NCBI GenBank assembly: GCA_027623675.1
Contig: JAQBVF010000001.1
Coordinates: 64,001 to 128,000 of the forward strand
Reading direction: 5' to 3'
DNA from: Chloroflexota bacterium
Lineage (GTDB): Bacteria > Chloroflexota > Dehalococcoidia > Lucifugimonadales > UBA3495
Length of the DNA: 64,000 nt
Shown piece after piece: positions 18,428 through 54,974 of the stretch. The position numbers and the translations under genes are program-made. The notes below the pieces were generated by a model. The model saw only the letters and a list, made by a program, of their open reading frames with translations. It ran no database searches and was not told the DNA's origin. How positions within the stretch are numbered: position 1 is the stretch's first letter; every line of letters starts with the position of its first letter.

Positions 18428-18686
18428 CGCTGGGAACGGGAGTAGTAGGGATACCCTGCCTGAGAGAGCCGGTGGCTGGTGCGAATCCGGTGGCAGTAGG
18501 GTCCCGAACTCGCCCGGGAGCGGCCCGCCTGAACAACGAGTAGGGCGCGGCGGTTGACACCGATATAATGTCTTCGAGTGGCCAGGCGGCCGGTCTAGCA
18601 ACGACGGGACCGAACGCAGGGCCAGAAGAAGGGTGGTACCACGAGCCTATTGGCCCGTCCCTTCCATGGGGGATGGGTTTTTTTAT
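18428..18686 (+). ncRNA. T-box riboswitch, Leu specifier (CTC)
   Basis: Stem I has AGTA / GAGAG / GGTGCGAA motifs and a specifier loop GAA-CTC-G (CTC at 18509-18511). T-box GGGTGGTACCACG at 18631-18643. Terminator GCCCGTCCC...GGGATGGGT plus T run. Confidence 0.9.
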
Positions 18687-18699
18687 TGGGATTTTTTGG

Positions 18700-18789
18700 G
18701 TCCTTCGACAGGCTCAGGTTGAGCCGGGGCAGGCGAGGACAGGATGAGCGTAAGCTTTCGAGTCCTCCGACGGGCTCAGGATGAGCGGG
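18700..18789. repeat. REP-like direct repeats (GTCCTYCGACRGGCTCAGGWTGAGC)
   Basis: Two near-identical copies plus a partial copy between the T-box terminator and ilvB. Confidence 0.6.
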
Positions 18790-18824
18790 ATAGATAAACG
18801 GAATCTGCGGGATAGTGGAATCTG

Positions 18825-20558
18825 ATGGAATTAACCGGCGCTGAAATAGTTTGCGAAAGCCTGCTCAAAGAGGGCGCTGATGTGGTGTTTGGACTGCCCG
18901 GCGGGGCGGTGCTCCCCCTATACGGGGCGCTCTCCAGCTACCCCGGCATCCGCCACATCTTGGTGCGCCACGAGCAGGCCGCCGCCATGGCCGCTGACGG
19001 CTACTCCCGCGCCACCGGCAAGGTCGGCGTTTGCGTCGCCACCTCCGGCCCCGGCGCCACCAACCTGGTCACCGGCATCGCCGCCGCCCAGATGGACTCG
19101 GTGGCCATGGTCGCCATCACCGGACAGGTGCCCAGGCCCGCCATCGGCCGCGACGCCTTCCAGGAGACGGACGTCACCGGCGTGACCTTGCCCATCACCA
19201 AACACAACATGCTGGTGATGGACGTTAAAGATGTGGCCCAAGCGATCCATGACGCCTTCCACATCGCCCGCACCGGGCGGCCAGGGCCGGTGTTGGTGGA
19301 CATTCCCAGGGACGTTTTGCTGGGCGAAAAGACCGAGTTTGTCTGGCCCACCACGACCAAACTGCCCGGCTACAAGGTCCCCGGCGAGGCGCCGGAATCG
19401 CAGGTTGCCGCCGCCGCTGAACTGATCAACAAGGCCGAGCGTCCGCTGATCATGGCCGGACACGGCGTGCTCATCTCCCATGCCTACGGTCTGATGACCG
19501 AGCTGGCGGAGAAGGCCCAAGTGCCGGTGATCACCACCCTCTTGGGCATCAGCTCCATCCCGTCGGACCACGAGCTGAACCTGGGCATGTCGGGCATGCA
19601 CGGCATGGCCTACGCCAACATCGCCATCGACGAGGCCGACCTGATCATTGGCTTGGGCATGCGCTTCGACGACCGGGTCACCGGCCGGATATCCGACTTC
19701 GCCCCCAACGCCAAGATCATCCACGTGGACATCGACGACTCCGAGGTGGACAAGAACGTCAAGACCACCGTGGGGTTGGTCGGCGACCTGAAAGCGGTAT
19801 TGGGACAGATGCTGCCCAAGGTGGAAGCCAACGTCCACATCGACTGGCTGCGTCACATCGAGGAACTAAAGATCCAGCACCCATCGCATCTGGTGCGCGA
19901 TTCCAACGAACTATTGCCCCAGTACGTGCTCCAGCGCTTGACCGAGGTTACCCAGGGCCGGGGCATCGTAGTTACCGGCGTGGGCCAGCACCAGATGTGG
20001 GCCGCGCAGCACTGCAAGTTCACCGAGCCCAATACCTTCATCACATCCGGCGGATTGGGCACCATGGGATTCGAGGTCCCAGCCGCCCTGGGCGCCCAGG
20101 TGGGCCGGCCCGACTCGGTGGTTTGGTCGGTGTGCGGCGACGGCGGCTTCCAGATGACCATGTGCGACATCGCCACCGCCGTGGAGAGCGGCGCCGACGT
20201 TAAATTCGCCATCTTGAACAACACATCCCTGGGAATGGTCCATCAATTGCAGGACATATTCTTCGAGAAGGACTACGTGGCCAGTGAGTATACCGCCAAC
20301 CCCGACTTCGTGAAGATCGCCGAGGCCTACGGCATCCGGGGCATCCGGGTCACCCAGCAAGACCAGGTGGTCAACGCGGTGCAGCAGGCAATGGAGACCG
20401 CCGGACCGGTGATCGTCGACTTCATGGTCAAGGAAGACGAGATCGTCTATCCGTTCATCCCTTCGGGTCAGTCGGTCAAAGAGATGTTGGAAGAACCGGC
20501 GCCCGGGGAACCTTCTTCAAAAAGTTCTTCAAAACGTTCTTCAACAGGGCGTTCCTAA
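18825..20558 (+). CDS. ilvB: Acetolactate synthase large subunit (paralog 1)
   Basis: RHEQ, SGPGATN, RFDDRVTG, VGQHQMW and GDGGFQM motifs. Confidence 0.96.
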   Translation: MELTGAEIVCESLLKEGADVVFGLPGGAVLPLYGALSSYPGIRHILVRHEQAAAMAADGYSRATGKVGVCVATSGPGATNLVTGIAAAQMDSVAMVAITGQVPRPAIGRDAFQETDVTGVTLPITKHNMLVMDVKDVAQAIHDAFHIARTGRPGPVLVDIPRDVLLGEKTEFVWPTTTKLPGYKVPGEAPESQVAAAAELINKAERPLIMAGHGVLISHAYGLMTELAEKAQVPVITTLLGISSIPSDHELNLGMSGMHGMAYANIAIDEADLIIGLGMRFDDRVTGRISDFAPNAKIIHVDIDDSEVDKNVKTTVGLVGDLKAVLGQMLPKVEANVHIDWLRHIEELKIQHPSHLVRDSNELLPQYVLQRLTEVTQGRGIVVTGVGQHQMWAAQHCKFTEPNTFITSGGLGTMGFEVPAALGAQVGRPDSVVWSVCGDGGFQMTMCDIATAVESGADVKFAILNNTSLGMVHQLQDIFFEKDYVASEYTANPDFVKIAEAYGIRGIRVTQQDQVVNAVQQAMETAGPVIVDFMVKEDEIVYPFIPSGQSVKEMLEEPAPGEPSSKSSSKRSSTGRS

Positions 20559-20559
20559 C

Positions 20560-21111
20560 ATGGCCCAGACGAATCACACCGAACAGCACACGCTGATCGC
20601 CCTGGTGGAAGACAAGCCGGGCGTGTTGACCCGCGTGGCCAGCATGTTCCGCCGCCGCGGCTTCAATATCGCCAGCTTGGCCGTGGGCAACAGCGAACAG
20701 CCGGGCCTCTCCCGTATGACCTTCGTGGTCAACGGCGACGACTACACCGTGGGCCAGGTCGCCAAGCAACTGGACAAACTCATCGACGTGATCGAAGTCT
20801 CCGACATCACCAAAGAGTCGATTGTCACCCGGGAGTTGGCCCTCCTAAAGGTCACCACCACCCCGATGACCCGCGGGGAGATCATCCAGATCGTCAACCT
20901 GTTCCGGGCCAACATCATCGACGTCGGCAGCGAGTCGATGGTCATTGAGATCACCGGCGAGCAGGACAAGACCAACGCGCTGAACGCCTTGCTGCAGCCC
21001 TTCGGCATCATCGAGATGCACCGGACCGGCGTGGTGGCGATGGTGCGAGGCCAAGCCAACGGTCTGGCCACCGGATACGCTGGGCGCTGCAACGGCAGCG
21101 TGCACAACTAG
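20560..21111 (+). CDS. ilvN: Acetolactate synthase small (regulatory) subunit
   Basis: DKPGVLTRVASMFRRRGFNIASL ACT domain and RELALLKV. Confidence 0.95.
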   Translation: MAQTNHTEQHTLIALVEDKPGVLTRVASMFRRRGFNIASLAVGNSEQPGLSRMTFVVNGDDYTVGQVAKQLDKLIDVIEVSDITKESIVTRELALLKVTTTPMTRGEIIQIVNLFRANIIDVGSESMVIEITGEQDKTNALNALLQPFGIIEMHRTGVVAMVRGQANGLATGYAGRCNGSVHN

Positions 21112-21152
21112 CGGCGAGACTCCATATATGAGAGAAAGTGGCTGAGAACATT

Positions 21153-21219
21153 TCACCCCCGTCATAACCTTCCCCCGTGAAGTGGAAGGGAGCAACTCTC
21201 CCACGAAGGTGAGAGAGTT
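21153..21219. repeat. REP-like palindromes between ilvN and ilvC
   Basis: CCTTCC..GGAAGG and AACTCTC.CAC..GTGAGAGAGTT hairpins preceded by a CACCCCC tract. Confidence 0.45.
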
Positions 21220-21314
21220 CGAGTGGCGGCGACGGCACACGGCAAACCACCCCGCACCGGCGACAACGGCACACCGCGGCAAAAGTCTAATACTTGGGAA
21301 GGACAAAAGGAAAA

Positions 21315-22310
21315 ATGGTAGACGTTTATTACGACAAGGACGCAGACCTGGCCCACTTGGCCGGCAAGACCATCGGCATGGTTGGCTACGGCAGCCAGGG
21401 CCACGCCCACGCCCTGAACCTGAAGGACAACGGCCAGAACGTGGTGGTTGGCCTTTATCCCGAAAGCCCCAGCCGGGCCGTGGCCGAAGCCGCCGGTCTG
21501 CGGGTTGCGGATGTGCCCGAGGTCGCCAAAGAAGCCGACGTGCTGATGATGGTCATTCCCGACCACATCCAAGGTCGCGTCTACCGCGAGCAGATCGAGC
21601 CGCACCTCCGGCCCGGCAGCGCCTTGATGGTGGCCCACGGGTTCAGCATCCACTACCGCGAGATCGTTCCGCCGGAAACCGTGGATGTCATGATGGTGGC
21701 CCCCAAGGCCCCCGGTCACCGCATGCGCGAGCTTTTCACCGAGGGCGTTGGCGTCCCCAGCCTGTTGGCGGTGCACCAAGACGCCACCGGTCACGCCAAA
21801 GACATCGGCCTGGCCTATGCCAAGGGCATCGGCAGCACCGGCTCCGGCGTGCTGATGACCACCATCAAGAACGAGACCGAGAGCGACCTGTTCGGCGAGC
21901 AAGCCATCCTCTGCGGCGGCGTGAGCGCCCTGGTCAAAGCAGCTTTCGATACCCTGGTGGAAGGCGGCTATCCCCCGGAGATTGCCTTCTTCGAGTGCCT
22001 CCACGAGCTTAAGATGATCGTCGACCTGATGTACCAGGGTGGCTTCAACTACATGCGCTACTCGGTCAGCGACACCGCCGAGTACGGCGACCTGACCCGC
22101 GGACCGCGCATCATCGACGAGCACGTCCGGGACAACATGCGGGCGGTGTTGAAAGAGATCCAGGACGGCACCTTCGCCAGGGAATGGATCGCCGAGAACG
22201 ACGAAGGCCGCCCCCGGTTCAATCCCCTGCGCGAGCAGGCCCAACACAGCCAGATCGAGGACATCGGCAAGGAACTTAGGGCCATGATGCCCTGGATGGA
22301 CCCGAAATAA
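21315..22310 (+). CDS. ilvC: Ketol-acid reductoisomerase
   Basis: [36 protein letters not shown] and SDTAEYG motifs. Confidence 0.97.
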
Positions 22311-22327
22311 AGGCCTCACCGCGGACC

Positions 22328-22405
22328 TGTCATTCTGACGAGTGAAGCGAGGAAGAATCTTCCAATCATCTAATTGGCAGACCCTTCGCTACGCTCAGGG
22401 TGACA
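22328..22405. repeat. REP/MITE-like inverted-repeat element (TGTCATTCTGA...TCAGGGTGACA)
   Basis: Terminal inverted repeats TGTCA/TGACA with internal GAAGCGA..GAAGAATCT / AGACCCTTCGCT arms. Confidence 0.65.
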
Positions 22406-22545
22406 TCTTGGCAGTGCTGTTTATGCCCCCCAACAGACACTGACGGTGCTCTTGGGGCAAAGCGTTAAATAGTGATCTCGCAACCTGGATATTTCGGCAG
22501 AACGAATCATTGGGAGCAATGTCATGAGAAATCTGGAGGCGCTGA

Positions 22546-22600
22546 GTGTAGTCCACCATCGCCCGCTGGTCCTGGCTGGGCTGGCGGCGGTGGACTACAT
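22546..22600. repeat. Long palindrome starting with GTAG (REP-doublet-like)
   Basis: TGTAGTCCACC...GGTGGACTACA perfect 11-bp arms extended by GC pairs. Confidence 0.55.
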
Positions 22601-22686
22601 GCCCCTGCGACACCTTTCTGAAAGCCGCAGTTAGTGGACATAGCAGCTCAAAACCACCAACATCAGAAAGGGACTAGGTAATTAAA

Positions 22687-24252
<1,566 letters not shown>

Positions 24253-24359
24253 GCGGAGGCTGCAAAAGCGGCAAAAAACATGGGCTCCGGCGTCTCCCGG
24301 CATATCGGGAAGGCAGTCGGACCGGCTAAACCGGGGTAACTCCGGACGGCAAGGATCGG

Positions 24360-24399
24360 AAAAGCGGCATCGCTACTTAGCGGTGCCGCTTTCTTGTTT
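24360..24399 (+). terminator. Intrinsic terminator after leuA
   Basis: AAAGCGGCATCGCT/AGCGGTGCCGCTTT hairpin plus TCTTGTTT. Confidence 0.7.
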
Positions 24400-24467
24400 G
24401 GCGGAGCCGGCGCGTGAGTAGGGCGCGGAACAAGAGTCCGGAGCGCCTCTGACTTAAGCCGGCGTGA

Positions 24468-24513
24468 TTGACGAGACCGGCAGTGGCTAAGTATTATCGA
24501 TAATCGATATCGA
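24468..24513 (+). promoter_or_regulatory. Promoter with overlapping palindromic operator upstream of the padR gene
   Basis: TTGACG-18 bp-TATTAT, overlapped by ATTATCGATAAT and TCGATATCGA palindromes. Confidence 0.55.
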
Positions 24514-24515
24514 AT

Positions 24516-24866
24516 ATGGATACCAGACGCGACATACTCAGGGGCTTCATCAAAGTTCACATCCTCTTCCATGCCACCGAAGAACCGGTGTATGGATCGG
24601 GCCTTATTGAGGAACTGGGCCGCCACGGCTATCACGTGAGTCCTGGAACATTGTACCCATTACTGCATTCGATGCAGGAGGAGGGCTATCTGGTGAGTCA
24701 GCAAGAGGTCGTGGCGGGCAAGGCACGCCGGTATTACCGGTCAACGCAACTTGGAAAAGAGACACTGGTGGATGCTCAGGACAAGATCAGGGAACTGGTG
24801 TCCGAAGTTCTCGGACCCTTGCCGGGAGATGGACCAGGAGATGGGCGGGAAGATGGGACTCTATGA
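24516..24866 (+). CDS. PadR-family transcriptional regulator
   Basis: VYGSGLIEEL..GY.VSPGTLYPLL and RRYYRST.LG winged helix. Confidence 0.92.
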   Translation: MDTRRDILRGFIKVHILFHATEEPVYGSGLIEELGRHGYHVSPGTLYPLLHSMQEEGYLVSQQEVVAGKARRYYRSTQLGKETLVDAQDKIRELVSEVLGPLPGDGPGDGREDGTL

Positions 24867-26131: not shown

Positions 26132-26208
26132 AAACCATGGAGGCGGTCTCCGTCTGACACTGGCAGCGCCGGGGAACTACGGATTATCACGATTGGGCTG
26201 AGAGCGAA

Positions 26209-26238
26209 CCTGTCTTGACAGCGATCGCAAATAAGGTT
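26209..26238 (+). pseudogene. Short remnant encoding PVLTAIANKV (second copy of a cytochrome P450-like C-terminal fragment)
   Basis: Same 10 amino acids as 26505-26534; all nucleotide differences are synonymous. Confidence 0.5.
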
Positions 26239-26286
26239 TGGACGGCTTCCGCCGTACTCCCAGGGGCGTTAGGCCGGTGAGAGCCC

Positions 26287-26499
26287 CTAAACCAGCTTCA
26301 TCTGGAAGCCCTTGTCCTGCTGCTGGCCTCGGGCGTTCAGGTGGACGGCCGGGTAGCCCAGCTCCCGCTGCCGCGCGGATAGTTCAGGGAAGCCGCTGAC
26401 GGTGTGGACCTGCTTGGGACCGACTGCTTTCACGAATTCGACCAGCATGTCGAATCCGAGGTGGCCGCTATCAGGTACACTGGCATCGGCGGCCCAGCC
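26287..26499 (-). pseudogene. Diverged duplicate of the last ~70 codons of the MBL-fold nuclease gene (29518-29730)
   Basis: Translates GWAADASVPDSGHLGFDML...PAVHLNARGQQQDKGFQMKLV* versus intact GWAADASLPYSDHPDFNEL...PAVHLNARGHKQDAGFQMKLV*. Confidence 0.9.
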
Positions 26500-26504
26500 C
26501 CCTG

Positions 26505-26627: not shown

Positions 26628-27325
26628 TGCAGGCGCTCTTCGGTAATGGAGATGACCCATAGCGACCGGAAAACTGGGCTGCTGTCGGCGGCCCAGTTTT
26701 GTCTCTGATCTTCAGATAAGCTGTCCCCTATAGGCGGCGCAAAAACGATTATCATGAATAGGATTCTTTGAGAGATGCCGACCTAGCCGATGGAAAACCC
26801 GAAAACCACGTCTGAAATGACTCAGATCGCGGCTGGAAAACAGGCCCGGCCAGTCTGGTCATCTCAGCGAATCTTTATCATCGCGTCGATCGCCGGAGTG
26901 GTCGGCCTAGGCAATATCTGGCGTTTCCCCTACATGGTGGGGCAGAACGGAGGGGGGACGTTCATCGTCGCCTACGCCATCTGCATCTTTGCCATCGGAT
27001 TTCCCATCATGGTACTCGAGTCGAGCGCCGGTAATCTCACCGACCGTGGCCCAGTTGGGACCTTCCGTCACCTCAACAAGCGGTGGGGACCATGGATCGG
27101 ATGGTTCCTGGTAGCTCTCACCGTTTCGATCATGAGCTACTACTTCGTTGTGACCGGATGGACCCTTGGCTACATGGTCGATGCGATCCTTGGCAGGCTG
27201 GAATCGTTCGACGATTTTACGTCCGGTTTTTCTTCGCTGGGTTATTTCTTCGCGGTGGCCATACTGGTTCTGGTGGTGATGTCCAAAGGGATCGAATACC
27301 TGGAGAAGTGAGGTGGACCCCATCA

Positions 27326-28267
27326 TTAAGACAGGATTGGGGCAGGATTAAGTGAGGGTCCCGCTGTGTTTCCAAAGTCTACCAATTCTCTGCCTGGCAG
27401 CCACCTCCTCTCTTTCGCCTCTTCGTTCCATTCCGCCGTCTTTGAGTTGAACACCTCAGCGGGTGTCCGGTAGCCCAGCGCCTGATGGGGCCTCTGGATG
27501 TTGTAGAACCGGAAGTAGTTGTCGATCCCGTCCCTGGCCTCCCGTCCGCCTGAGTAGGCCTTCAGGTAGACCTCCTCGTACTTCACCGTCCGCCACAGCC
27601 TTTCCACGAAGATGTTATCGGAGTACCGCCCTTTCCCGTCCATGCTGATCCTGACTCCGTGTCGCTGTAGGAGCCCGGTGAAGGCCTCGCCGGTGAACTG
27701 GCTCCCCTGGTCGGTGTTGAAGACCTCCGGTTTCCCCCTGCACAGCGCTTCTCCCAATGCTTCGACGCAGAAGTCGGCGTCCAGGGTGTTGGACAGACGC
27801 CAGGCGACCACGTGGCGGCTGTACCAGTCCATGATGGCCACCAGGTAGAGAAAGCCACGGGCCATCGGGATGTAGGTGATGTCCGCCGCCCACGCCTGGT
27901 TGGGCCTGGTGATCTCCATCCCTCCCAGCAGGTACGGATAGACCTTGTGCCCTGGTCCCGGCCGGCTGGTCCTCGGACGCCGGTAGATGGCGGTAAGCCC
28001 CATGGTCTGCATCAGCCGCTGCACCCGCTTCCGGTTCACCTGGCAGCCCTGACGTCCCAGCCAGGCCTTCATGCGCCGGGACCCGTAGAAGGGCGTGGCC
28101 AAGTACTGCTGATCGATCTGCTTCATCAGGGCCAGGTCCTCGCAGGATGTTCCCCTGGGCCGGTAGTAGAGGCAGGAGCGGCTGACGCCCAGCAGGGCGC
28201 ATTGCCTAACTGTGGACAAGGCCGGGTGCCGCCGGTCCACCATCTCCCGCCGCCGCTCCCGGCTCAT
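27326..28267 (-). CDS. IS3 transposase OrfB (DDE integrase core)
   Basis: [36 protein letters not shown] and RPHQAL motifs. Confidence 0.93.
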
Positions 28268-28548
28268 GGACCGGACCTTTCCCACAGAAAATCTCGCTCT
28301 ACCTTGAGCTGGCCGATCTGCTGGTAGAGCCGGGCCACCAGGGCGCCCTCGCCCTTCTGTCCTTTGTCCTGTTTCCCGTTGAAGATACCCGCCGCTCCTT
28401 CCAACAGAGCCTTCTTCCAGGCCTGGATCTGGCCGGGATGGACCTCGTACCGGATGGCTAGCTGGGCCACCGTTTCCTCGCCCTTGATGGCTTCCACGGC
28501 CACCTTGGCCTTGAACGTTGGGCTGTGCTTCCTCCGCTCTTTCGACAT
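28264..28548 (-). CDS. IS3 transposase OrfA (HTH)
   Basis: [13 protein letters not shown]...[15 protein letters not shown]; its stop overlaps the OrfB ATG in the -1 frame. Confidence 0.9.
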
Positions 28549-29517
28549 GTCCCACTCCTCTTCCACAGCGACAGCTGCGGGTATTTTAGGAGCAGAACTC
28601 TCACTTAGCCAGCTGTCTGAAAAACCGGGTCCACCTCAAAGATCAGCCGGGTTATGTTGCCGCTGCTGGTGGTTGGAGTGATCGGCCTCGCTGTCTATTC
28701 CCAGACGCTGGAAGGGGCAGGCCAGGCTAATGACTTCTACTTTAGTTTTGACTCAGACCACTTCTGGAAGCTTCAAACCTGGCGGATGGCTGCCGGCCAA
28801 GCGTTTTACTCCCTGAGCATCGGCCTGGCGTTGTTAATCACCTATGGCAGCTACACACCTAATGGAGTCAATTTAGTTACTTCCTCGGTCGCCATCGTCG
28901 CCACCAACTCGTTCGTATCATTGATGGCCGGACTCATGGTGTTTCCCATCGTGTTCACCTTCGGAATCACTCCTGAAACTGGCAGCCAACTCTCCTTCAC
29001 AGCCTTTCCCGCCGTGTTTGGCGACCTGGCGGGAGGCAGGGCCATCAGCATTGTGTTCTTTGTCCTACTTTTCCTCGCCGCGTTTACGTCGTGCACCGGT
29101 GGGCTGGCAGTGGTGCTAGCCCCCATACGCGATGAATTTCAGACGCCAAGGTGGGCCGCCGCTGCCATCGGTGTGGCATTTGTCACGCTGCTGGGGATCC
29201 CGTCGGCGCTCAGCTTTACTTCGGTAGGCCTAGATATAAACGGCAAGCCGTTCTTAGACCTGATGGATCAAGTCACCGGATCAGGCGTGGTGATCGTCGC
29301 CGGCATATTGGGCGCCGGCCTGATTGCCTGGGGAATCGCGAAGGCGGACCTCTTGGCGGCCATGAATTCCAGATTGTCCAGCGAGTGGATCATCTACGTA
29401 GGCCGGTTTCTACCGGTCGGTGCCGTAGTGCTTCTCTTGGCCACTTATCTGTTCTGACCCTGGCCATTGCATCAAAAAATTGGAGCGGGGCTGTACGGTC
29501 GGTTGAAAACTAAGGGA

Positions 29518-31176: not shown

Positions 31177-31204
31177 CAGGGAAACCACCGGGGCTTAGCT
31201 CATC

Positions 31205-45284: not shown

Positions 45285-45314
45285 ACCCACCGGCTTCCCG
45301 GCCACCGCAAACAG

Positions 45315-45352: not shown

Positions 45353-45385
45353 TATTGGCTTTGAGTAGCGGTTAGCCGAGCTTGA

Positions 45386-47236: not shown

Positions 47237-47259
47237 ACGGAACCCGGTCCTCGAGCAGG

Positions 47260-48759
47260 CTAGTCTGCCGGGTCCAGGCGAAACCTGAGCCACAGCACCG
47301 GACGACCGGCATCGGCATCGACCTTGGCCCAGTCGGCAATGCGGTGGCCGACCACCCAGGCGATACCCTTTTCGGTCTCCAGCAAGGGCACTTTTCCCCG
47401 CCAGGGCCGTGGCACCCGCAGGTCGGTGAACAGGTCCTGCAATTTCTTCTGCCCCGTCATCCCCAATGGCTGGATACGGTCACCGGGACACCACGTCCGC
47501 ACCGTTGCCCCATCCCCCAGCGCCCTTCGGTCCAAGCGGGCCGTCCACTCGTCCCATACTCCCGTTGCCCAAGCAGGCTCAACGCCAGCCATGCCGAGCT
47601 GCATCCTCAGACTCCAAGGTCCGGCCGAAACCGCAATCGCAGCGCCGGGCGTAGCGGGCAGCTTGATCTGGTATTCGCCGTCAAACTCGGGGTAAGGGCA
47701 GTCCGCCTCCTGCTGGCGGGTAAGGGTCAGGTTCGAGTAGTCCTGCCGGAGGACCACCCCTCCGGGCAACTCCAGTCTCCGGCCCCCGCGCCCGCCCTGG
47801 GCCAGTTCTTCCATCGCCACCAAATGGCTCTCTCGAAGCCGGGTGGCGTCGCCGGTAACCAGAATGTAGCCACGCCGCAGGGCCAGCCTTTGCAGCGCCG
47901 GGTGTATGGCCGCCAACTCCGGCCTGGCAAAGCAGACCTCGTTAACCGGTTGGGAGCTGTCGGCCGGCGTGGTCTCAGCCAAGCCCGGCCACACCCGGTC
48001 CAGTTCCCGCTCCACGAAGTCAAGTTGGTCAGCGGCGGTTCGAGAAAGGCGCACCAGGGCGTTGCGCACCTGCGGGTTATAGTCCTGGGCCAGGCGGGGC
48101 ATAAGGTCCTGGCGCACCCGGTTGCGGGTGAACCGCCACATATAATTCCCGCTGTCGGTCCGGTACGGACGGTCAATCTCGCGGCAGTAGTCGCCGGTCC
48201 GGGCTTTGGTGACATCCAACAGGGGCCGGAACAACTGCAGCCCATCCGAACCGGCGGGCCAGGGCCACTTGGAAACCTCGGCCATGCCCCGGAGACCGTG
48301 CAGACCGGCGCCCCGGAGCACATGGAGCAGCACCGTCTCGGCGAGGTCGTCTGAGGTATGACCCACTGTCACCGCCCGCGCCCCGGCTGCCTTGGCGACC
48401 CGGGCCAAGAAGGCGTACCGCATCTCCCGGGCGCCCTGCTCGAATGACGAGATGCCCCGCTCTCTCTGATACTCGTGGGGGTCTTCTTTAACCACGGTCA
48501 CCGGCAGGCCCAGCTCCCCGGCGATCTGGGCCACGAAAGCCGCGTCGTCCTCGGCCTCCTGGCCCCTAAAGTTGTGGTTCAGGTGGGCGACGTGCAGCGA
48601 CAGGCCGTGGGCTTCTTTCAGGCGGTCCAGGGCGTAGAGCAGGGCGGAGGAATCGGGGCCGCCAGACGCGCCGACGACGAGAGTGGCGCCGGAGTTGGAG
48701 TAGCCGGCCCGCTGTAGCGCAGACGCCACCTGTCGTTCTAGATCGGCGGCGTTGGCCAA
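47260..48759 (-). CDS. tilS: tRNA(Ile)-lysidine synthetase
   Basis: SGGPDS PP-loop, AHLNH.FRG, GHTSDDLAET, RNRVR and a C-terminal KKLQDLF..VP. TTG start is estimated. Confidence 0.93.
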   Translation of the reverse strand: MANAADLERQVASALQRAGYSNSGATLVVGASGGPDSSALLYALDRLKEAHGLSLHVAHLNHNFRGQEAEDDAAFVAQIAGELGLPVTVVKEDPHEYQRERGISSFEQGAREMRYAFLARVAKAAGARAVTVGHTSDDLAETVLLHVLRGAGLHGLRGMAEVSKWPWPAGSDGLQLFRPLLDVTKARTGDYCREIDRPYRTDSGNYMWRFTRNRVRQDLMPRLAQDYNPQVRNALVRLSRTAADQLDFVERELDRVWPGLAETTPADSSQPVNEVCFARPELAAIHPALQRLALRRGYILVTGDATRLRESHLVAMEELAQGGRGGRRLELPGGVVLRQDYSNLTLTRQQEADCPYPEFDGEYQIKLPATPGAAIAVSAGPWSLRMQLGMAGVEPAWATGVWDEWTARLDRRALGDGATVRTWCPGDRIQPLGMTGQKKLQDLFTDLRVPRPWRGKVPLLETEKGIAWVVGHRIADWAKVDADAGRPVLWLRFRLDPAD

Positions 48760-48772
48760 GATTGGTATCCGG

Positions 48773-49390
48773 TTACCGGTTTTCAGGGGACAGGTGGCTG
48801 GTGGAGTTATAGGAGATGAGCCGGCGGCCCCGGTCGTCGCTGTCAAACTTGCAGACCGATGCCAGGTCCAATGACATGCGGTGGAAGTTCGCCAGGGGCA
48901 CCCCCAGCAGCTTACCAACGATGCAGCGGATGGCGAAATTGTGGGAGATAACCACGACTGAATCTTCGCCGGCGTGTTTCTGCTCGATACCGAGGATCGC
49001 CTGCCAGGTCCGTTCGCGAAGTTGGACCAGCGACTCGCCGTTGGGCAAGAGCACGGTCTCCGGATGCGAGCGCCATTCCGAGATGAACTCGGGCCAGCCA
49101 ACCCGCATCTCATCTCCGGTCACCCCTTCCAGGTCACCCAGGGAGAGCTCTTTCAGGCCGGGCTCCTGGTGGATGGTCACCGGAGTCACCGCCGCCAACT
49201 CTTCGGCGACCTTTACGGTCCTCTGCAGCGGACTCGTGTAGATGGCGTTCATGCCCCAGCCGGCGGCGGCCTGGGCCGTCTCTTTGGCCTGGGACAGACC
49301 ACGCTCGTTAAGCTCGATGTCCTCGTGACCCTGGAAACGGCCCAGCTTGTTCCATTCAGTCTCGCCGTGACGCACCAGAAAGAACCTCAT
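48773..49390 (-). CDS. Histidine phosphatase family protein
   Basis: RHGETEWN, SPLQR, GES and VISH motifs. Confidence 0.9.
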   Translation of the reverse strand: MRFFLVRHGETEWNKLGRFQGHEDIELNERGLSQAKETAQAAAGWGMNAIYTSPLQRTVKVAEELAAVTPVTIHQEPGLKELSLGDLEGVTGDEMRVGWPEFISEWRSHPETVLLPNGESLVQLRERTWQAILGIEQKHAGEDSVVVISHNFAIRCIVGKLLGVPLANFHRMSLDLASVCKFDSDDRGRRLISYNSTSHLSPENR

Positions 49391-50718
49391 CGATTTGAAC
49401 CCGGATCCGGGCGGGGGCCAGGCTCGATCCGGCCTAAGTCGGCCCCATGATTTATCCGACGCACTTCCACTTCTTCGATCCTGACCCCTTCCATAACCTT
49501 GATGGTTATGCGCAGGCCTCCGAATTCCATGACATCCCCAACCTCGGGGATGCTGCCCAGGCGGTCCAGGATATATCCGGCCAACGTCTGGTAATCACCT
49601 TCCGGGATTCCCAGTTCCAATTCTTCGTTGATATCAGAGATTGCCAGACCCGCGTCCATGCGGAACCGCCCGCGGCCCAAGGCGGTAACCGCTTCTTCAG
49701 GAGCTGAGCCTTCATCGCCCATCTGGCCGACGATCACAGCCATCATCTCTTTCATGGTCGCCAAGCCGGCGATGCCGCCGAACTCGTCCACGGTGAGCAC
49801 CATGCTATGCCCGCCCTCTCGCATCTCGTTGAAGGTCTCGCTGACACTCTTGGTCTCGGGGACGAAGAAGGCCGGCCTGATCTGGTCGGTGGCCGCCACT
49901 CCAGAATCTCCGCCGGATTCCCGTTGCAGGTCGCGCACTCCGGCCAGAACGTCCTTCACCGAAAGAACCCCCACCACGTTCTCCATCGACCCTTCATACA
50001 CGGGGAACCGGGTGTGGGTGTTCTCGGAATAGATGGACAGGAACTCGTCCAGATTTGAGCCATTCTCGATCCAGATTATCTCCGGCCGGGGCGTCATGAT
50101 CTCCCGCATCTGTCGGTCGCCGAATCGGAATACTTTCTCCAGCAGAGCGGCTTCACCAGCCTCCACCGTTCCGGTCTGGGCGCCGGCGGCAATCATGGTG
50201 CGAATCTCTTCCTCACCCATCAGGGGCGTCGACACGGTGATGCCGAGCACCCGGTTGCTCAGGGTGCTGAAGAGTTGGAGCAGCGTCACCAGGGGTGAAA
50301 GGGCTAGCTCGAACAGCCGGATGGGCCGGGACACCGCGAACGCGACGCGCTCGGAACGCCGCCAGGCTACGTTCTTGGGCAACGTTTCGCCGAACAGTAG
50401 CAGGAACGTGGTCACGCCGGCGGTGGCGATCAGTACGGACAAGCTCTCGTTGGCAAACAGGTTCAGGGCCAAGACGGTGGCCAGGGCGGCGGCGGCGGTG
50501 TTAACCAGATTGTTGCCCAGCAGCACTGTCGCCAGGAAACGCTCGGGACGCTGGATGATGTGGGAGACGCGGTCCGCGCCTGGCCGTCCGCTACGGACCA
50601 GGTGCATGAGACGCGCCCGTGGGAGAGCGATAAACGCGGTCTCAGACGCAGAGAAGAATCCGGATAAGGCTAGACTAACTATTAATAATGCTATACGCCA
50701 TGTATCACCGGCTTCCAT
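49387..50718 (-). CDS. CNNM/hemolysin-family protein (DUF21-CBS-CorC)
   Basis: FFSASETA, GETLPK, IMTPR, VDEFGG and YQTLAG; ATG 50718 follows GGAGG. Confidence 0.9.
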   Translation of the reverse strand: MEAGDTWRIALLIVSLALSGFFSASETAFIALPRARLMHLVRSGRPGADRVSHIIQRPERFLATVLLGNNLVNTAAAALATVLALNLFANESLSVLIATAGVTTFLLLFGETLPKNVAWRRSERVAFAVSRPIRLFELALSPLVTLLQLFSTLSNRVLGITVSTPLMGEEEIRTMIAAGAQTGTVEAGEAALLEKVFRFGDRQMREIMTPRPEIIWIENGSNLDEFLSIYSENTHTRFPVYEGSMENVVGVLSVKDVLAGVRDLQRESGGDSGVAATDQIRPAFFVPETKSVSETFNEMREGGHSMVLTVDEFGGIAGLATMKEMMAVIVGQMGDEGSAPEEAVTALGRGRFRMDAGLAISDINEELELGIPEGDYQTLAGYILDRLGSIPEVGDVMEFGGLRITIKVMEGVRIEEVEVRRINHGADLGRIEPGPRPDPGSNR

Positions 50719-50864
50719 TATCGGAGGCCACCTCCATAGACCTCGAAAAGTTGCCGCTTGGCAATATCGGGTCTGTTCACGATGATAGCATCGGTCGTAA
50801 ATTAGTGTAAAGTTGAACGCAGACCGGCATATCAACCACAGCCATAGATACTCACCAACGAACA

Positions 50865-51893
50865 ATGACGACAAAGATACTTGGCATAGAAACATCTTGC
50901 GACGAAACGGCGGCGGGGGTTGTTGAAGACGGGCACAATCTTCTATCAAACGTCATCTCATCTCAGACCGACCTGCATGCGGCCACCGGCGGCGTGGTGC
51001 CCGAGGTTGCGTCACGGCAGCATATACACGACCTGGTCCCCGTGTTGGAGCAGGCCGCCGCCGATTCCGGCTACGGGCTGGAAGATATGGACGCCATCGC
51101 CGTAACCTACGGGCCGGGACTGGCCGGGTCTTTAATCACGGGACTGAACGCCGCCAAGGCCATCTCCTACTCCCTGGGGATACCTTTGATCGGCGTGAAC
51201 CACCTTGAGGGACACATCTACGCTTCTTGGTTGGCCCACTCGGACCTGGCCGACGACCCCGGCTTTCCGCTCGCCTGCCTGGTGGCGTCGGGAGGCCACA
51301 CCGACCTGCTACTGATGGAAGGGCACGGCCGGTACAAGCTGGTGGGCCGTTCCCGCGACGACGCGGCCGGCGAAGCCTTCGACAAGGCGGCCCGTATCCT
51401 GGGGCTGGGCTTCCCTGGCGGCCCGGAGATACAGCGGGTATCCCAAGGGGCCACCGGCGAAGAGAGGCTGCCCCGCGCTTGGATGAAAGACACTTTGGAT
51501 TTCAGCTTCAGCGGACTGAAGACCGCCCTGCTGCACATGGCCCAGGACCGTGGCGTCTACCCGTCTCCGCAAGAAGGGACGGACGCGGCGCGGCTGGTGC
51601 GCGAGATGGCGGCGGCGTTCCAGGAGTCTGTGGTCGACGTCATATCGTCCAAGTTGATCAGCATGGCGTCCGACTACAAGGTCAAGGGATTGGTGTTGGG
51701 CGGCGGCGTGACGGCCAATTCCCGTCTGCGTGAGGAGATCGTCAGGCGTTCACCTCTGCCGGTGGTCATACCTCCGCCGGTCCTCTGCACCGACAACGGA
51801 GCCATGATCGCGGCCTGCGGCTACTTCCAATTCAAACGGGGTGAAGAGACGGCTCTGGACATAGATGTGGACCCCGGACTGCCCCTGGGTTAG
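50865..51893 (+). CDS. tsaD: tRNA N6-threonylcarbamoyltransferase
   Basis: GIETSCDET, HLEGH, SGGHT, DDAAGEAFDK, FSFSGLKT and TDNGAMI motifs. Confidence 0.97.
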   Translation: MTTKILGIETSCDETAAGVVEDGHNLLSNVISSQTDLHAATGGVVPEVASRQHIHDLVPVLEQAAADSGYGLEDMDAIAVTYGPGLAGSLITGLNAAKAISYSLGIPLIGVNHLEGHIYASWLAHSDLADDPGFPLACLVASGGHTDLLLMEGHGRYKLVGRSRDDAAGEAFDKAARILGLGFPGGPEIQRVSQGATGEERLPRAWMKDTLDFSFSGLKTALLHMAQDRGVYPSPQEGTDAARLVREMAAAFQESVVDVISSKLISMASDYKVKGLVLGGGVTANSRLREEIVRRSPLPVVIPPPVLCTDNGAMIAACGYFQFKRGEETALDIDVDPGLPLG

Positions 51894-51927
51894 GGCCATC
51901 ATCAGCCGCGCGGGGAGTGAGATGCAG

Positions 51928-52731
51928 TTATCCTACGATTCTCTGCCGGGCGGCGAAGGTTGAGTTCACAACCTCAAATATCTGCTCTTCCGCGGTAGCC
52001 CCTTTGAAGGGAAACGTAACTCTCACGCCGTCTCCCTGGAACGTCACTTCGCCGTCGGGTTTGCCGAAGTAGAACTGGGCCATGATGCCGACCCCCGACA
52101 GAATTGCCAGAAATACCAGGAAGGCCGACAGGTCCATGCGGATCACGGGAACAGTCGGACCGTCTATCCGGCCCGTCAGCCAGTACGCCAACAGCACGTA
52201 CAAGAAGACGCCGGCGACAACCATCAGGCCGCCTTGGATCAACGAACCCTTGCTGCGCCGGGCCGAATTCACCGCCACGGCCTTGACCTCGTTCAGCGGC
52301 ATCACGACGACTTCTCTGTTGCCGTCTTTCTGGCCGAAAGCGATGACCCTCTGGTTGGTCAGCACCAGCATCCGGCCCTGGTCTTCGGGCTGCGGAACCA
52401 GTCCTCTTTCGTGACTGAACGTATGGGACACCGACTCTCCGGGGAGCAGGCTCACCATCCGGATCTTTGCACCGGTGCCGGGCGTTGCCACGCCGCTGGG
52501 CGGGCTGGCTTCGGGTTGCCGCGGAACTGGGGATGGGGTGGGGGGCGGCGCAGGTGAGGGTGTTAAGCCCTGATGCAGGCCTTTGGTCAACTGCTGCCAA
52601 AGAGGTTGATACTGGCCCTGTGAGAGTCCCACGGTGGCGCCCGTTCGCGTCACCGGCCGTCTTTTCCCTGGGTTACTAAATTGTTTGGGCCGCCGTCTGA
52701 CCGGCGGGTCCGTTGGCAGATTACGGTACAA
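51928..52731 (-). CDS. Hypothetical membrane protein (PH-like segment plus 2 TM helices)
   Basis: Pro-rich N-terminus, LVLTNQRVIAF PH-like strand pattern and two hydrophobic helices. The start is uncertain. Confidence 0.6.
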   Translation of the reverse strand: MYRNLPTDPPVRRRPKQFSNPGKRRPVTRTGATVGLSQGQYQPLWQQLTKGLHQGLTPSPAPPPTPSPVPRQPEASPPSGVATPGTGAKIRMVSLLPGESVSHTFSHERGLVPQPEDQGRMLVLTNQRVIAFGQKDGNREVVVMPLNEVKAVAVNSARRSKGSLIQGGLMVVAGVFLYVLLAYWLTGRIDGPTVPVIRMDLSAFLVFLAILSGVGIMAQFYFGKPDGEVTFQGDGVRVTFPFKGATAEEQIFEVVNSTFAARQRIVG

Positions 52732-52876
52732 AAACGACTCCTTCCAAAGGCCATATTATCATAGGGAAGAGGCTAACTCACACCTGCGGCAAGGCCCTGA
52801 TTCGGACAGCGGCAGAGCCCTGCGCTTGCGCAGTTGACGGCGTTGCCCGGTGATTCGCCAGACTAGGCACGATGTA

Positions 52877-52906
52877 TTGACACCGGCTGGCGGGCTTTGT
52901 TAATCT
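52877..52906 (+). promoter_or_regulatory. Promoter of the second T-box leader
   Basis: TTGACA followed by an extended -10 TGnTAATCT. Confidence 0.6.
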
Positions 52907-52915
52907 TTATTATCA

Positions 52916-53197
52916 AAGGCTGAGATGGAGACGAGTAGGCAGGGGTAGGCGCCTAGCGAGCCTGGTATGGTGAAAGCAGGCGCGCCGAAGCTGACTGAAA
53001 ATCCCTCCGGAGCCGCCAGTCGAAAACCCTCTGAAGATGAAAGAGGGCCAGTAGACCGAGCCGGGGTTCGTTCCCCCGTTAAGAAAGACGGGACATGTTG
53101 GTGTCCTGCTAGAGAGGTCCCGGTAAAACGGGATTATTAGGGTGGTACCGCGGGAACGTAATGTCCCGTCCCTATGTTGGGATGGGGCTTTTTTATT
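52916..53197 (+). ncRNA. T-box riboswitch, Ile specifier (ATC)
   Basis: AGTA / GCGAG / GGTGAAA stem I motifs and specifier loop GAAA-ATC-C (ATC at 53001-53003). T-box GGGTGGTACCGCG at 53140-53152. Terminator GTCCCGTCCC..GGGATGGGGC plus T run. Confidence 0.88.
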
Positions 53198-53276
53198 GCC
53201 CAAAAGCGGCTCTCCGGTCCTTTCTCTGCAGGAGGAATTCTTGCTAGTGAAAGTTTTGCCAGTTATGGAGGCTGCC

Positions 53277-54974
53277 ATGCAAATGAAAGGCTCTGAGATC
53301 CTCTGCGAAAGCCTGCTCCGGGAAAGTGTCGAGGTTATCTTCGGCTATCCCGGCGGGGCGATCCTCCCCTTCTACGACGCGCTCTGGTCATACCCCCAGC
53401 TGCGCCACATCTTGGTGCGCCATGAGCAAGCCTCTGCCCACGCCGCCGACGGCTACTCCAGGGTCACCGGCAAGGTCGGCGTTTGCGTGGCCACCTCCGG
53501 ACCCGGCGCCACCAACCTGGTCACGGGAATCATGGGCGCCAAGGCCGACTCCGTGCCCATGGTCGCCATCACCGGCCAGGTCGCCCGGGCTTCCCTGGGT
53601 ACCGAAGCCTTCCAAGAGTGCGATATCTGCGCCATCGCCGCCCCCACCACCAAACAGGTGTTCATGGTTATGTCCGCCGCCGACCTGGCGGACACGGTGA
53701 GAGAGGCATTCCACGTCGCCCAAGAGGGCCGGCCAGGCCCGGTGTTGATCGATATTCCCCGGGACGTCCAGCTAGAACTCGCCGAAGCCAATTTCCCCGA
53801 AGTGACCCCCATCACCGCGCCCGCTGTTTCCGATGAGGCTTTGGAGCGCCTGAAAGAGGCGGCCCGCCTGATCAACGAAGCCGAGCGCCCGCTCATCATC
53901 GCCGGCCACGGCGTGATGACCTCCGGCGGATCCAAAGAACTTCTGGAACTGGCCGAGCGGTCCGGCATACCGGTCATAAACACCCTGTTGGGACTGGGCA
54001 GTTTCCCCGCCGGCCACCCCCTGAGCATGGGCATGCTGGGGATGCATGGCATGTACTGGGCCAACATTTCGGTGGACCAGGCCGACCTGCTGATCGGGGT
54101 GGGCATGCGCTTCGACGACCGGGTTACCGGCAAGGTCGACACCTTCGCCCCACACGCCAGGATCATCCACATGGATATCGACGCCTCCCAGATCGGGCGC
54201 AATGTTCCGGTGGAGGTCCCGGTGGTCGGCGACGCCAAGGCCCTACTACAGAAGTTGACGCCCATGGTGACCAACGTTCCCAGGCCCGACTGGATGCAGT
54301 ACATCCAGAACTTAAAGCAGGACCACCCGTCGCTGACCATCCCGCCCAGCGATAAGCTCCAGCCCCAGCAGGTGATCCGTGCTCTGGATACCATCTTGCA
54401 AGACGACCCGGAGACCACGGTGGTCACCGGAGTGGGCCAGCACCAGATGTGGGCCGCCCAATTCCTGTCGTTCAAACACGCCAACACTTTCGTGTCGTCC
54501 GGCGGGCTTGGGGCCATGGGGTTCGAGCTGCCAGCCGCCGTGGGCGCCCAGGTTGGCAAGCCGGGCGCGCCGGTATGGGCGGTCGCCGGAGACGGAGGCT
54601 TTCAGATGACGCTTCAAGAACTGGTCACACTGTCGGAGGAGAAGCTGCCGGTGAAGATCGCCTTGATCAACAACGGCTACCTGGGCATGGTGAAACAGTG
54701 GCAGGAGATGTACTTCGACAACCACTTGAAGGCGGTGCCGGTGAACGGCCCCGACTTCATCAAGCTGGCCGACGCCTATGGCATAGCATCCCTCCGGGTC
54801 ACGGAGCATGAGGATGTGCTGCCTGCGCTGCGAAAGGCCCAGGCCCACGACGGCCCGTTCCTGATCGAGTTCGTGGTAGACTCAGACACCAACGTTTATC
54901 CCATGGTCCCGCCGGGCGGCTCTCTAGCCGACACGCTGGAGGACCCGGCCATGAGCAACCACAAAGGGATCTAG
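53277..54974 (+). CDS. ilvB: Acetolactate/acetohydroxybutyrate synthase large subunit (paralog 2, no adjacent small subunit)
   Basis: GYPGGAIL, RHEQ, RFDDRVTG, GDGGFQM and LGMVKQWQ; ATG follows GGAGG. Confidence 0.95.
   Translation: MQMKGSEILCESLLRESVEVIFGYPGGAILPFYDALWSYPQLRHILVRHEQASAHAADGYSRVTGKVGVCVATSGPGATNLVTGIMGAKADSVPMVAITGQVARASLGTEAFQECDICAIAAPTTKQVFMVMSAADLADTVREAFHVAQEGRPGPVLIDIPRDVQLELAEANFPEVTPITAPAVSDEALERLKEAARLINEAERPLIIAGHGVMTSGGSKELLELAERSGIPVINTLLGLGSFPAGHPLSMGMLGMHGMYWANISVDQADLLIGVGMRFDDRVTGKVDTFAPHARIIHMDIDASQIGRNVPVEVPVVGDAKALLQKLTPMVTNVPRPDWMQYIQNLKQDHPSLTIPPSDKLQPQQVIRALDTILQDDPETTVVTGVGQHQMWAAQFLSFKHANTFVSSGGLGAMGFELPAAVGAQVGKPGAPVWAVAGDGGFQMTLQELVTLSEEKLPVKIALINNGYLGMVKQWQEMYFDNHLKAVPVNGPDFIKLADAYGIASLRVTEHEDVLPALRKAQAHDGPFLIEFVVDSDTNVYPMVPPGGSLADTLEDPAMSNHKGI

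Follow-up and report, generated by a model that had tools for sequence, protein, structure and literature searches.

The window analysed here is a stretch of 64,000 nt of contig JAQBVF010000001.1 (assembly GCA_027623675.1, Chloroflexota bacterium), and all coordinates are positions in this window. AHAS determines how carbon is divided between the Val/Leu branch and the Ile branch; IlvB and IlvN make up its textbook pair of subunits. Two genes for the catalytic subunit are found in the window, each behind a T-box of its own:

18374..18402, plus strand: sigma-70-like promoter, TTGACA-17-TACGAT, TG-extended, ahead of T-box 1 (consensus match only)
18423..18665, plus strand: T-box 1, transcriptional type, specifier CUC (Leu) at 18509-18511, antiterminator bulge UGGU
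18652..18685, plus strand: intrinsic terminator overlapping the T-box 1 antiterminator
18825..20558, plus strand: ilvB1, AHAS catalytic subunit, Leu475 at the E. coli IlvG W464 site
20560..21111, plus strand: ilvN, AHAS regulatory subunit, the sole one detected in the genome
21294..22310, plus strand: ilvC, ketol-acid reductoisomerase
22687..24252, plus strand: leuA, 2-isopropylmalate synthase, not citramalate synthase; 377 nt past ilvC, putative operon member
52913..53176, plus strand: T-box 2, transcriptional type, specifier AUC (Ile) at 53001-53003, antiterminator bulge UGGU
53163..53194, plus strand: intrinsic terminator overlapping the T-box 2 antiterminator
53247..54974, plus strand: ilvB2, stand-alone AHAS catalytic subunit, Trp at the W464 site

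The promoter is a single site where 0.2 were expected in shuffled sequences, and citramalate synthase yielded zero matches above the cut-off in the genome. The start of ilvB2 is uncertain, being either GTG 53247 behind AGGAGG or one of ATG 53265 and 53277, and the start listed at GTG 53142 falls within T-box 2.

In class I T-boxes the UGGN antiterminator bulge pairs with the NCCA end of the tRNA, and the intrinsic terminator is mutually exclusive with this structure. Both leaders are T-boxes of the transcriptional type: each matches RF00230 over its full length (model positions 1-219, from Stem I through II, IIA/B and III to the antiterminator), carries a specifier and has two competing folds, an antiterminator whose 7-nt bulge contains UGGU and a terminator bearing a U-run. 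Rfam's gathering score is 93 bits; T-box 1 exceeds it with 99.5 bits, T-box 2 falls short of it with 88.1 bits (E 1e-19), and two orthologues of T-box 2 reach 104 and 108 bits. The specifier loops read GAA-CUC-G in T-box 1 and GAAA-AUC-C in T-box 2, the latter with C, not a purine, after AUC, and one of its 35 orthologous leaders reads ATC-A. The AUC register is supported by the observation that ATC is kept in 35/35 of these stand-alone leaders while the flanks vary, and the specifier of the operon leaders is conserved in 76 of 77. CUC and AUC both lie in the priority frame, as this is described in the available part of the TBDB paper (PMC7778990). The original prediction had placed ilvB1, with Leu encoded by TTG, behind a CTC (Leu) T-box and ilvB2, with Trp encoded by TGG, behind an ATC (Ile) T-box; the former is confirmed by the RF00230 match, the loop and the site alignment, the latter by the full-length RF00230 match and the orthologous ATC, and both specifiers, read in the priority frame, are the predicted codons.

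The cognate tRNA-Leu(GAG) and tRNA-Ile(GAU) are both encoded in the genome, each with the discriminator A that matches UGGU. The genome (91% complete) holds three T-boxes, the third of which lies before trpE, and, as had been proposed, one ilvN; one ilvN was found in 39 of 41 genomes and two in none. No small subunit adjoins ilvB2 in any of 35 orthologous loci. A conserved leader peptide after the T-box was not found, an unconserved ORF with 30% Leu/Ile/Val being present in 3 of 99 leaders and in none of those in the window.

IlvB1 and IlvB2 are 54% identical and score 718 and 709 bits, respectively, against TIGR00118 (cut-off 538). The residues E47, F109, Q110, M250, R276, V375, D428 and N455 (IlvG numbering) are invariant in 100/100 sequences of the order, and IlvB1 retains the catalytic and substrate residues E50, F112, Q113, M258, R284, V386, D439 and N466. 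Judged by score and by conserved ThDP, FAD and substrate residues, both proteins are biosynthetic AHAS catalytic subunits. A shared motif reads LGMVHQLQ in IlvB1 (Leu codon TTG at 20247-20249) and LGMVKQWQ in IlvB2 (Trp codon TGG at 54699-54701), and its Leu/Trp position aligns with W464 of intact E. coli IlvG, with Q480 of IlvB and with L574 in the Arabidopsis W574L structures 7U25 and 7STQ. Trp464 is described as conferring preference for 2-ketobutyrate, its counterpart in AHAS I is Gln, and substitution by Leu loses the preference; this part of the original prediction is upheld through the accessible text of one secondary paper (PMC5727371). From this residue only, and on the strength of the same text, IlvB1 is predicted to be acetolactate-biased, that is, to have a low preference for 2-ketobutyrate over pyruvate.

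IlvB1 is not an orthologue of enterobacterial AHAS I (PRK08155 612 against a cut-off of 870): it has Leu and Met at the Gln480 and Leu476 sites of AHAS I and groups with Chloroflexota Trp copies; an AHAS I-like function is nevertheless predicted for it. Neither is IlvB2 an enterobacterial AHAS II, since PRK08978 gives 627 against a cut-off of 738, no small subunit adjoins it and it belongs to a separate clade. Decay of ilvB1 was considered and rejected, its dN/dS being 0.092 against 0.087 for IlvB2. The Leu of the ilvB1 site is preserved across six synonymous codons, and a second AHAS I-like change, M460 to L, was seen in 13/34 Trp-less and 0/66 Trp copies of the order, in an alignment that, for this and the residue counts, leaves out 13 of the 18 genus-g1 ilvB2 proteins.

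Within the bacterium's own Dehalococcoidia order, Trp was kept in 35/35 copies behind an Ile T-box, and 34/34 Trp-less copies lay behind a Leu T-box (CTC). Trp was replaced almost always by Leu, in the operon copy. On a tree built without the trait columns, which like one other tree leaves out 11 near-identical genus-g1 proteins, at least eight losses of Trp were placed, all in operon copies of two-copy lineages. Eight losses fell on 6.85 units of branch length in these copies, none on 5.25 in single-copy lineages and none on 6.79 in stand-alone copies; the chance of all eight falling there is about 0.01 and 0.004, for rows that were not drawn at random. A single ancient loss in the order was rejected, both by these counts and by an AU p of 2e-34 for one Trp-less clade.

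Among the single-match genomes of the order, 94/95 have Trp, two chance pattern matches outside ilvB being left out, and the exception holds a second, truncated copy. Single-copy relatives combine a Leu T-box with Trp, families f14 and f41 possess the two boxes with Trp in each copy, and family f40 has a T-box on the Trp-less copy only. In the family, 46/114 operon copies are Trp-less (six chance matches left out); the other 68 gave no Trp-less match, though nearly all such genomes have the Ile copy. The covariation of specifier with Trp or Leu anticipated for Chloroflexota was hence found in one direction: no Trp-less copy is found by itself behind an Ile T-box, but Trp may well persist under a Leu T-box. 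In four of the 46 genomes, drafts that are 78-88% complete, no Trp partner of the Trp-less copy was detected. In the class outside the order, 0/280 genomes gave a match that was both Trp-less and readable as the AHAS motif, with a pattern that misses Gly, Arg, Cys and some Ser and with three matches judged from their letters to be chance. Two metatranscriptomes held only relatives, mostly below 95% identity.

Covariation across genomes extends well beyond Chloroflexota, and the pairing recurs in Bacillota and Atribacterota. Outside Chloroflexota, Trp-less copies with a T-box of their own read Leu (7) or Val (9) in 16/16 cases and never Ile; Trp copies with their own T-box read Ile in 13 of 15, the remainder being one Val and one Leu. 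Both boxes are readable in 11 genomes, of which ten combine Trp with Ile and its absence with Leu or Val, while the other one, with a Phe copy, has a Val specifier on both; reversed pairs were not seen, and one Ile call (G559) is ambiguous in register. Three of these pairings, in G533, G555 and G559, are genome-internal sister pairs and represent separate duplications, and G531, G554, G677 and G637 share the layout of the window, with a stand-alone Trp copy behind an Ile box. In Fusibacter and three other genomes a Val box is paired with an AHAS I-like enzyme that is not a drifted duplicate. The Trp-less copy of G146, which differs from a family-f1 copy by about 0.09 changes per column and may be contamination, was kept out of the T-box tree. 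G603, whose contig stops short of the leader, is not among the rows used.

A sample of 131 Bacillota genomes, tallied by hand and with four chance matches left out, had one Trp and one Trp-less copy in 35/38 multi-copy genomes and Trp in 58/60 single-match genomes. Trp-less copies without a detected Trp partner were the two remaining Bacillota singles and those of G534, G538, G548 and G557. In 15 separated Bacillota pairs that were fetched, the T-box lay on the Trp-less copy alone in four and on neither in five. Both isozymes lie under one T-box region in 17 Bacillota and Armatimonadota operons, with Ile in nine, Leu in five, Val in two and Ile plus Leu in one, which indicates that an Ile box can control transcription of a Trp-less copy too. 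A strict independent-pairs test with seven pairs gave four to five in the same direction, none opposite and two to three ties (p 0.06-0.125), which is not significant.

We consider it likely that the two catalytic subunits, under T-boxes that sense different tRNAs, divide work between the Leu/Val and Ile branches. Uncharged tRNA-Leu would induce the Trp-less IlvB1, whose main product, for leucine and valine, is predicted to be acetolactate, and uncharged tRNA-Ile would induce IlvB2, which keeps Trp and is predicted to capture scarce 2-ketobutyrate for isoleucine. By analogy, T-box biology suggests the tRNA-dependent read-through, and E. coli AHAS I and the W464L mutant suggest the substrate bias. 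IlvB2 would borrow IlvN and rely on basal expression of ilvC from the Leu operon, since ilvC and ilvN lie in that operon only and Ile starvation alone would induce neither. The trees suggest that a duplicate with an Ile T-box came first, common to families f1, f14 and f41, and that this duplicate freed the operon copy for repeated loss of Trp. The two-way specialisation proposed originally is partly supported: ilvB2 is no specialist but a common Trp-type AHAS, and the derived enzyme is ilvB1. As the pairing recurs in unrelated bacteria, each shortage likely induces the isozyme that is expected to serve the amino acid in short supply. With somewhat less assurance, we favour the broader view that a matched module of sensor and active site evolved repeatedly after duplication or acquisition of ilvB, the specifier and the acceptor-selecting residue having changed in step, so that Ile goes with Trp, and Leu or Val with one of Leu, Met and Gln. 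At least three phyla and about six regulatory lineages would be involved, along with some eight additional losses of Trp within a single Chloroflexota order. The riboswitch codon would then predict substrate specificity, and a Trp-less, AHAS I-like isozyme would be a common convergent solution and no peculiarity of enteric bacteria.

One may argue that the operon-copy Trp simply became dispensable once an Ile-controlled copy existed and drifted from TGG to TTG, the acetolactate bias being unselected. That about 60% of family members have Trp in both copies, that Leu is one base from Trp, that the Arabidopsis W574L enzyme retains fold and overall efficiency (PMC9188596, in the part available) and that the independent-pairs test is not significant all agree with such drift. 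Neutral loss should, however, sometimes strike the other copy, and neither the 35 Ile-box copies nor the pairs elsewhere hold such a case; loss was also accompanied by M460L in 3/8 lineages and by a changed nearby Met in 6/8, and the Val-controlled enzymes of Fusibacter and its three counterparts are no drifted duplicates. Passive drift therefore appears improbable to us. Selection of Leu for turnover at high pyruvate, or for escape from inhibitors of the substrate channel, with the Leu or Val T-box marking the high-flux copy, seems a quite improbable explanation. In Arabidopsis W574L, according to the same text (PMC9188596), kcat rises about 2.5-fold, the KM for pyruvate about 4-fold, and herbicide binding is 38- to 35,000-fold weaker. 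Yet inhibitor escape fails to explain why a Trp copy is nearly always kept and under Ile control, and higher turnover is compatible with a division of labour.

A further possibility, unlikely though deserving of some weight, is that IlvB2 works alone or uninhibited, valine-insensitive like E. coli AHAS II, so that isoleucine is made when valine blocks IlvB1-IlvN. The lack of an adjoining small subunit in the orthologous loci is in line with this, and of 179 columns that are conserved in ilvN-linked copies about 12 are altered in the IlvB2 clade. These changes are, however, mostly not shared by stand-alone copies of other lineages, a comparison of the 179 columns revealing no clear shared signature of interface loss, and lone catalytic subunits are often weak, with about 5% activity for E. 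coli AHAS III in the accessible part of PMC5668897.

In a literature search that reached a minority of subscription journals, no paper linking the T-box specifier to the AHAS Trp site was found, and an earlier mention of the pairing may exist. The purpose of the Trp-less AHAS I of E. coli has so far rested largely on one organism group. The pairing described here provides numerous natural replicates that couple a one-residue change in the enzyme to a three-base change in the RNA sensor, with recent sister pairs in G555 and G559. If the bias is confirmed, it would show plainly that the specificity of regulation and that of catalysis have evolved in concert, T-box codons could serve to annotate AHAS paralogues, and natural acetolactate-biased enzymes could be drawn on for valine or isobutanol strains.

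The Trp-to-Leu change of IlvB1 is identical, in the same column, to that of the herbicide-resistant W574L mutant of Arabidopsis AHAS (7U1U, 7U25, 7STQ), which provides its top PDB matches; W574L is, however, a selected mutant of a single enzyme, and 2-ketobutyrate is absent from the available text on it (PMC9188596). An assay is also reported in PMC11579085, in its accessible part without Trp data. Paralogous transporters under Ile, Leu and Val T-boxes (Wels et al., PMC2494555) are likewise split by specifier; there, in the passages available, the specifier was used to infer transporter function and protein specificity was expected to be unchanged, whereas in the AHAS pair an active-site residue tracks the specifier. 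The ilvBNC-leuABCD operon of Bacillus subtilis (L328; PMC12452182, in part) likewise has a transcriptional CUC T-box before ilvB-ilvN-ilvC-leuA, but its IlvB, unlike IlvB1, keeps Trp; in the accessible text of that paper Ile and Val are sensed via CodY, with no second T-box on a second ilvB. The Bacillus cereus group has duplicated ilv operons (PMC5727371, in part), likewise with two ilvB copies, each under a T-box. It was rejected as a precedent for a Leu/Ile split, since Bacillus sp. N5-665 and G680, unlike the window, have Trp in both copies and AUC on all T-boxes, and the ilvB-leu operon of B. mycoides also combines Trp with AUC. E. coli likewise has a Trp-less AHAS I (ilvBN, Q480) beside the Trp-type AHAS II and III (ilvGM, W464; ilvIH), with the difference at the same site. 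The leader of its Trp-less ilvBN has Val and Leu codons and no Ile, and that of ilvG has Ile, Val and Leu. E. coli employs ribosome attenuation, a small subunit for each catalytic subunit and Gln at the site, while the window genome employs T-box sensing, one IlvN and Leu. As far as sequences can tell, the logic matches that of E. coli AHAS I versus AHAS II, rebuilt repeatedly with T-boxes.

The T-boxes, specifiers, genes and Leu/Trp site described in the original prediction are all present in the sequence, as RF00230 matches, CUC and AUC specifiers and residue 475 of the two acetohydroxyacid synthases (AHAS). Three T-boxes were found in the window's genome:

18423-18665: T-box 1, RF00230 match of 99.5 bits, CUC in the specifier loop.
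52913-53176: T-box 2, full-length RF00230 match of 88.1 bits (E 1e-19, slightly below the gathering score), specifier AUC.
L003:1501-1789 (G000:C6:20113-20401), outside the window: third T-box, 79.7 bits, specifier TGG (Trp), preceding a trpE-like ORF named from sequence alone.

T-box 1 and T-box 2 alike have an antiterminator with a UGGU bulge and a terminator that overlaps it, and tRNA-Leu(GAG) and tRNA-Ile(GAU), each with discriminator A, are encoded in the genome. Between the terminator of T-box 1 and ilvB1, a 34-nt repeat is present twice (18694-18789). It probably belongs to the small interspersed repeats; its core was counted 16 times genome-wide, and the length of this spacer differs among relatives.

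The genes are arranged as ilvB1-ilvN-ilvC-leuA, with ilvB2 alone. IlvB1 and IlvB2 are 54% identical, and the named relatives of the protein belong to the Chloroflexota, class Dehalococcoidia. Residue 475, Leu in IlvB1 and Trp in IlvB2, aligns with W464 in an intact IlvG of E. coli, with Q480 in the IlvB of that species, and with the substituted residue (Leu) in structures of Arabidopsis W574L; the remaining catalytic residues examined are intact in both enzymes. The genome has one ilvN; ilvD, ilvE, leuCD, leuB and a threonine-dehydratase-like gene are present and unlinked. No citramalate synthase scored above the cut-off in the genome, and 11 more distant ThDP-enzyme homologues were seen. The window also carries a sodium-dependent transporter gene in two halves (26790-29457) with an IS3-family transposase gene between them (27326-28555, minus strand), and a GMC oxidoreductase (58637-60187) above the cut-off for the mycofactocin dehydrogenase MftG.

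At least two ilvB copies are present in 110 of 121 family genomes. The expected covariation of specifier and residue stood for the solo copies, where a T-box, when present, read ATC and the enzyme kept Trp at all 35 loci read, and for the Trp-less proteins read, all 34 of which lie behind CTC. It did not extend to the operon copies at large, since leaders read CTC in 76 of 77 loci but Leu or Met replaces Trp in only 46 of 114 family operon copies (never at solo-copy coordinates). The remaining leader, apparently GTG (Val), precedes a single-copy Trp ilvB operon (L061, G036:C5). In the order sample of 111 genomes Trp was found in 94 of 95 single-match genomes, the lone exception carrying a second, truncated copy. 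In family f40 the operon copy is Trp-less in 8/8 genomes and the Trp partner lacks a T-box in both genomes that were readable; f14 and f41 are families in which both T-boxes occur and neither copy has lost Trp. Among 280 genomes of the class outside the order, no match read as the Trp-less AHAS motif. One Trp-less operon copy (L100, G146:C21) is nearly identical to that of genus g32 of family f1 but lies in another family's genome, through either contamination of the bin or a recent transfer.

A GTDB pattern scan returned at least 120 stretches, and among the matches listed Leu or Phe occupied the site in many phyla. In 50 of these genomes searched whole, Leu copies usually had a Trp partner. 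Phe copies (Dormibacterota) were mostly single in the same genomes, and the Phe variant LGMVRQFQ was common and mostly single-copy among loci L138-L216 (Dormibacterota and others), which suggests that Phe retains enough 2-ketobutyrate preference. A Leu T-box Stem I was seen at one Phe-variant locus (L207).

The Bacillota sample was drawn evenly and not selected on the trait (131 genomes, 98 with a match); it was counted by hand, its kin are not independent, and G554, the genome at its centre, was a chosen one. Of the 38 multi-copy genomes, 35 had a Trp copy together with a Trp-less one, and Trp was present in 58 of 60 single-match genomes. Outside Chloroflexota, in T-box operons with one ilvB only, the Trp-less copies read Leu or Val in 16/16 and the Trp copies (n=15) Ile in 13, Val in one and Leu in one; the register of the Ile call of G559 is ambiguous, and the CUC-U calls of G526, G628 and G608 are less certain.

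Genomes with a Trp-less copy behind a T-box, single-ilvB operons
Leu T-box: G531, G533, G554, G526, G628, G657, G694.
Val T-box: G555, G559, G532, G677, G637, G678, G604, G593, G549.

Where both boxes were readable, Trp went with Ile and the Trp-less copy with Leu or Val in 10 of 11 genomes, and the reversed pair occurred in none; the sole departure, G549 with its Phe copy, reads Val on both. An Ile box in front of a lone Trp-type ilvB, the window's layout, recurs in G531, G554, G677 and G637. Because the pairs of Atribacterota, Negativicutes and Oscillospiraceae are sisters inside their own genomes, and the Fusibacter Leu copy clusters with E. coli IlvB, the sensor-residue pairing arose several times; the sister pairs of G555 and G559 are recent. 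Tandem arrays of a T-box and a ykkC-type RNA precede ilvB operons at L271:22-388 and L276:3309-3688 (Atribacterota G533) and L295:3999-4434 (Negativicutes G555); the Guanidine-I model matches this RNA at 52-55 bits, under its cut-off of 63. We take this RNA to be, likely, the ppGpp-sensing variant. Such tandems before ilvB are listed in the accessible part of PMC12452182.

Other results count against the pairing. An independent-pairs test on seven pairs gave 4-5 in the same direction, none opposite and 2-3 ties (p 0.06-0.125). In 17 operons both isozymes lie under one T-box region (Ile 9, Leu 5, Val 2, Ile+Leu 1), with the Leu copy immediately before leuA or leuC and yet co-regulated. Of 15 separated pairs fetched from the even sample, six had both boxes, four a box only on the Trp-less copy and five none. 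Several draft genomes carry a Leu copy for which no partner was detected, and in the window ilvN and ilvC are confined to the Leu operon. The operon form ilvD-ilvB(Trp)-ilvN-(ilvC)-ilvB(Leu)-leuA/leuC was seen at L306-L320 and L361-L370 (Desulfotomaculales-type and other Bacillota), and Desulforamulus (L317) has Ile and Leu T-boxes in tandem.

On an ilvB tree of the order built without the trait columns, eight Trp losses are needed, all on operon copies of two-copy lineages; single-copy lineages and solo copies, which span a similar length of branch, show none. Together with the family counts, this indicates that the regulatory split came first and that Trp loss came later and repeatedly but reached no more than about 40% of the family. 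Grouping all Trp-less copies as one was rejected (AU p 2e-34; 6e-13 inside the family). That Trp merely drifted away is an unlikely account of these losses. In the window's genus dN/dS is the same for the two paralogues (0.092 and 0.087; 135/136 pairs). Two further positions tend to change along with Trp. At M460, 13/34 Trp-less versus 0/66 Trp copies carry the Leu that E. coli AHAS I has at this position. In the C-terminal VYPMIP motif, the Met, presumably close to the Trp site, is altered to Phe, Trp, His or Thr in 6/8 Trp-less order lineages versus 4/45 Trp operon copies (F544 in the window's ilvB1; L004-L100) and possibly fills the space vacated by Trp; the change is inconsistent outside Chloroflexota. 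Selection of Trp loss for turnover or inhibitor escape finds some favour in the Arabidopsis W574L kinetics (available part of PMC9188596), and we hold it to be slightly less probable still than drift.

The sequence evidence covers T-box anatomy, specifiers, residues, repeated pairing and purifying selection. An uncharged cognate tRNA stabilises the antiterminator (T-box biology, available part of PMC7778990). According to the accessible text of PMC5727371, Trp at the site makes the enzyme prefer 2-ketobutyrate, AHAS I carries Gln there and shows no such bias, and Trp-to-Leu abolishes the preference; at about 300 uM pyruvate and 3 uM 2-ketobutyrate, AHAS I makes almost nothing but acetolactate and Trp-type enzymes both products. 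An assay that detects the two products at once is described in PMC11579085. We consider it probable that Leu shortage would induce an enzyme routing pyruvate to acetolactate, with ilvC and probably leuA, and that Ile shortage would induce the Trp-type enzyme, capturing 2-ketobutyrate, probably with the shared IlvN. Exactly one ilvN was found in 39 of 41 relatives and two in none. An IlvN-free, valine-insensitive IlvB2 is a doubtful variant, though better placed than drift, and is compatible with this isozyme switch.

Among known systems, the window's pair most resembles AHAS I and AHAS II of E. coli, where the leader peptide of the Trp-less ilvBN holds Val and Leu without Ile and that of ilvG all three; the window's enzymes are orthologues of neither. 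In B. subtilis a Leu box is paired with a Trp enzyme, and duplicates of the B. cereus group have Trp and an Ile box on both copies, all their ilv-leu and ilv-ilvA operons (L357-L360, L326, L327) reading AUC (Ile). The ilvA operon of this group has tandem T-boxes, and NZ_CP093325.1 (5.5 Mb, entered as a plasmid) bears both operons. No earlier report of a specifier-residue pairing was found in the literature searched, whose coverage lacks key papers. The individual parts are known; judged from that literature, what appears to be new is their matched combination, which evolved repeatedly.
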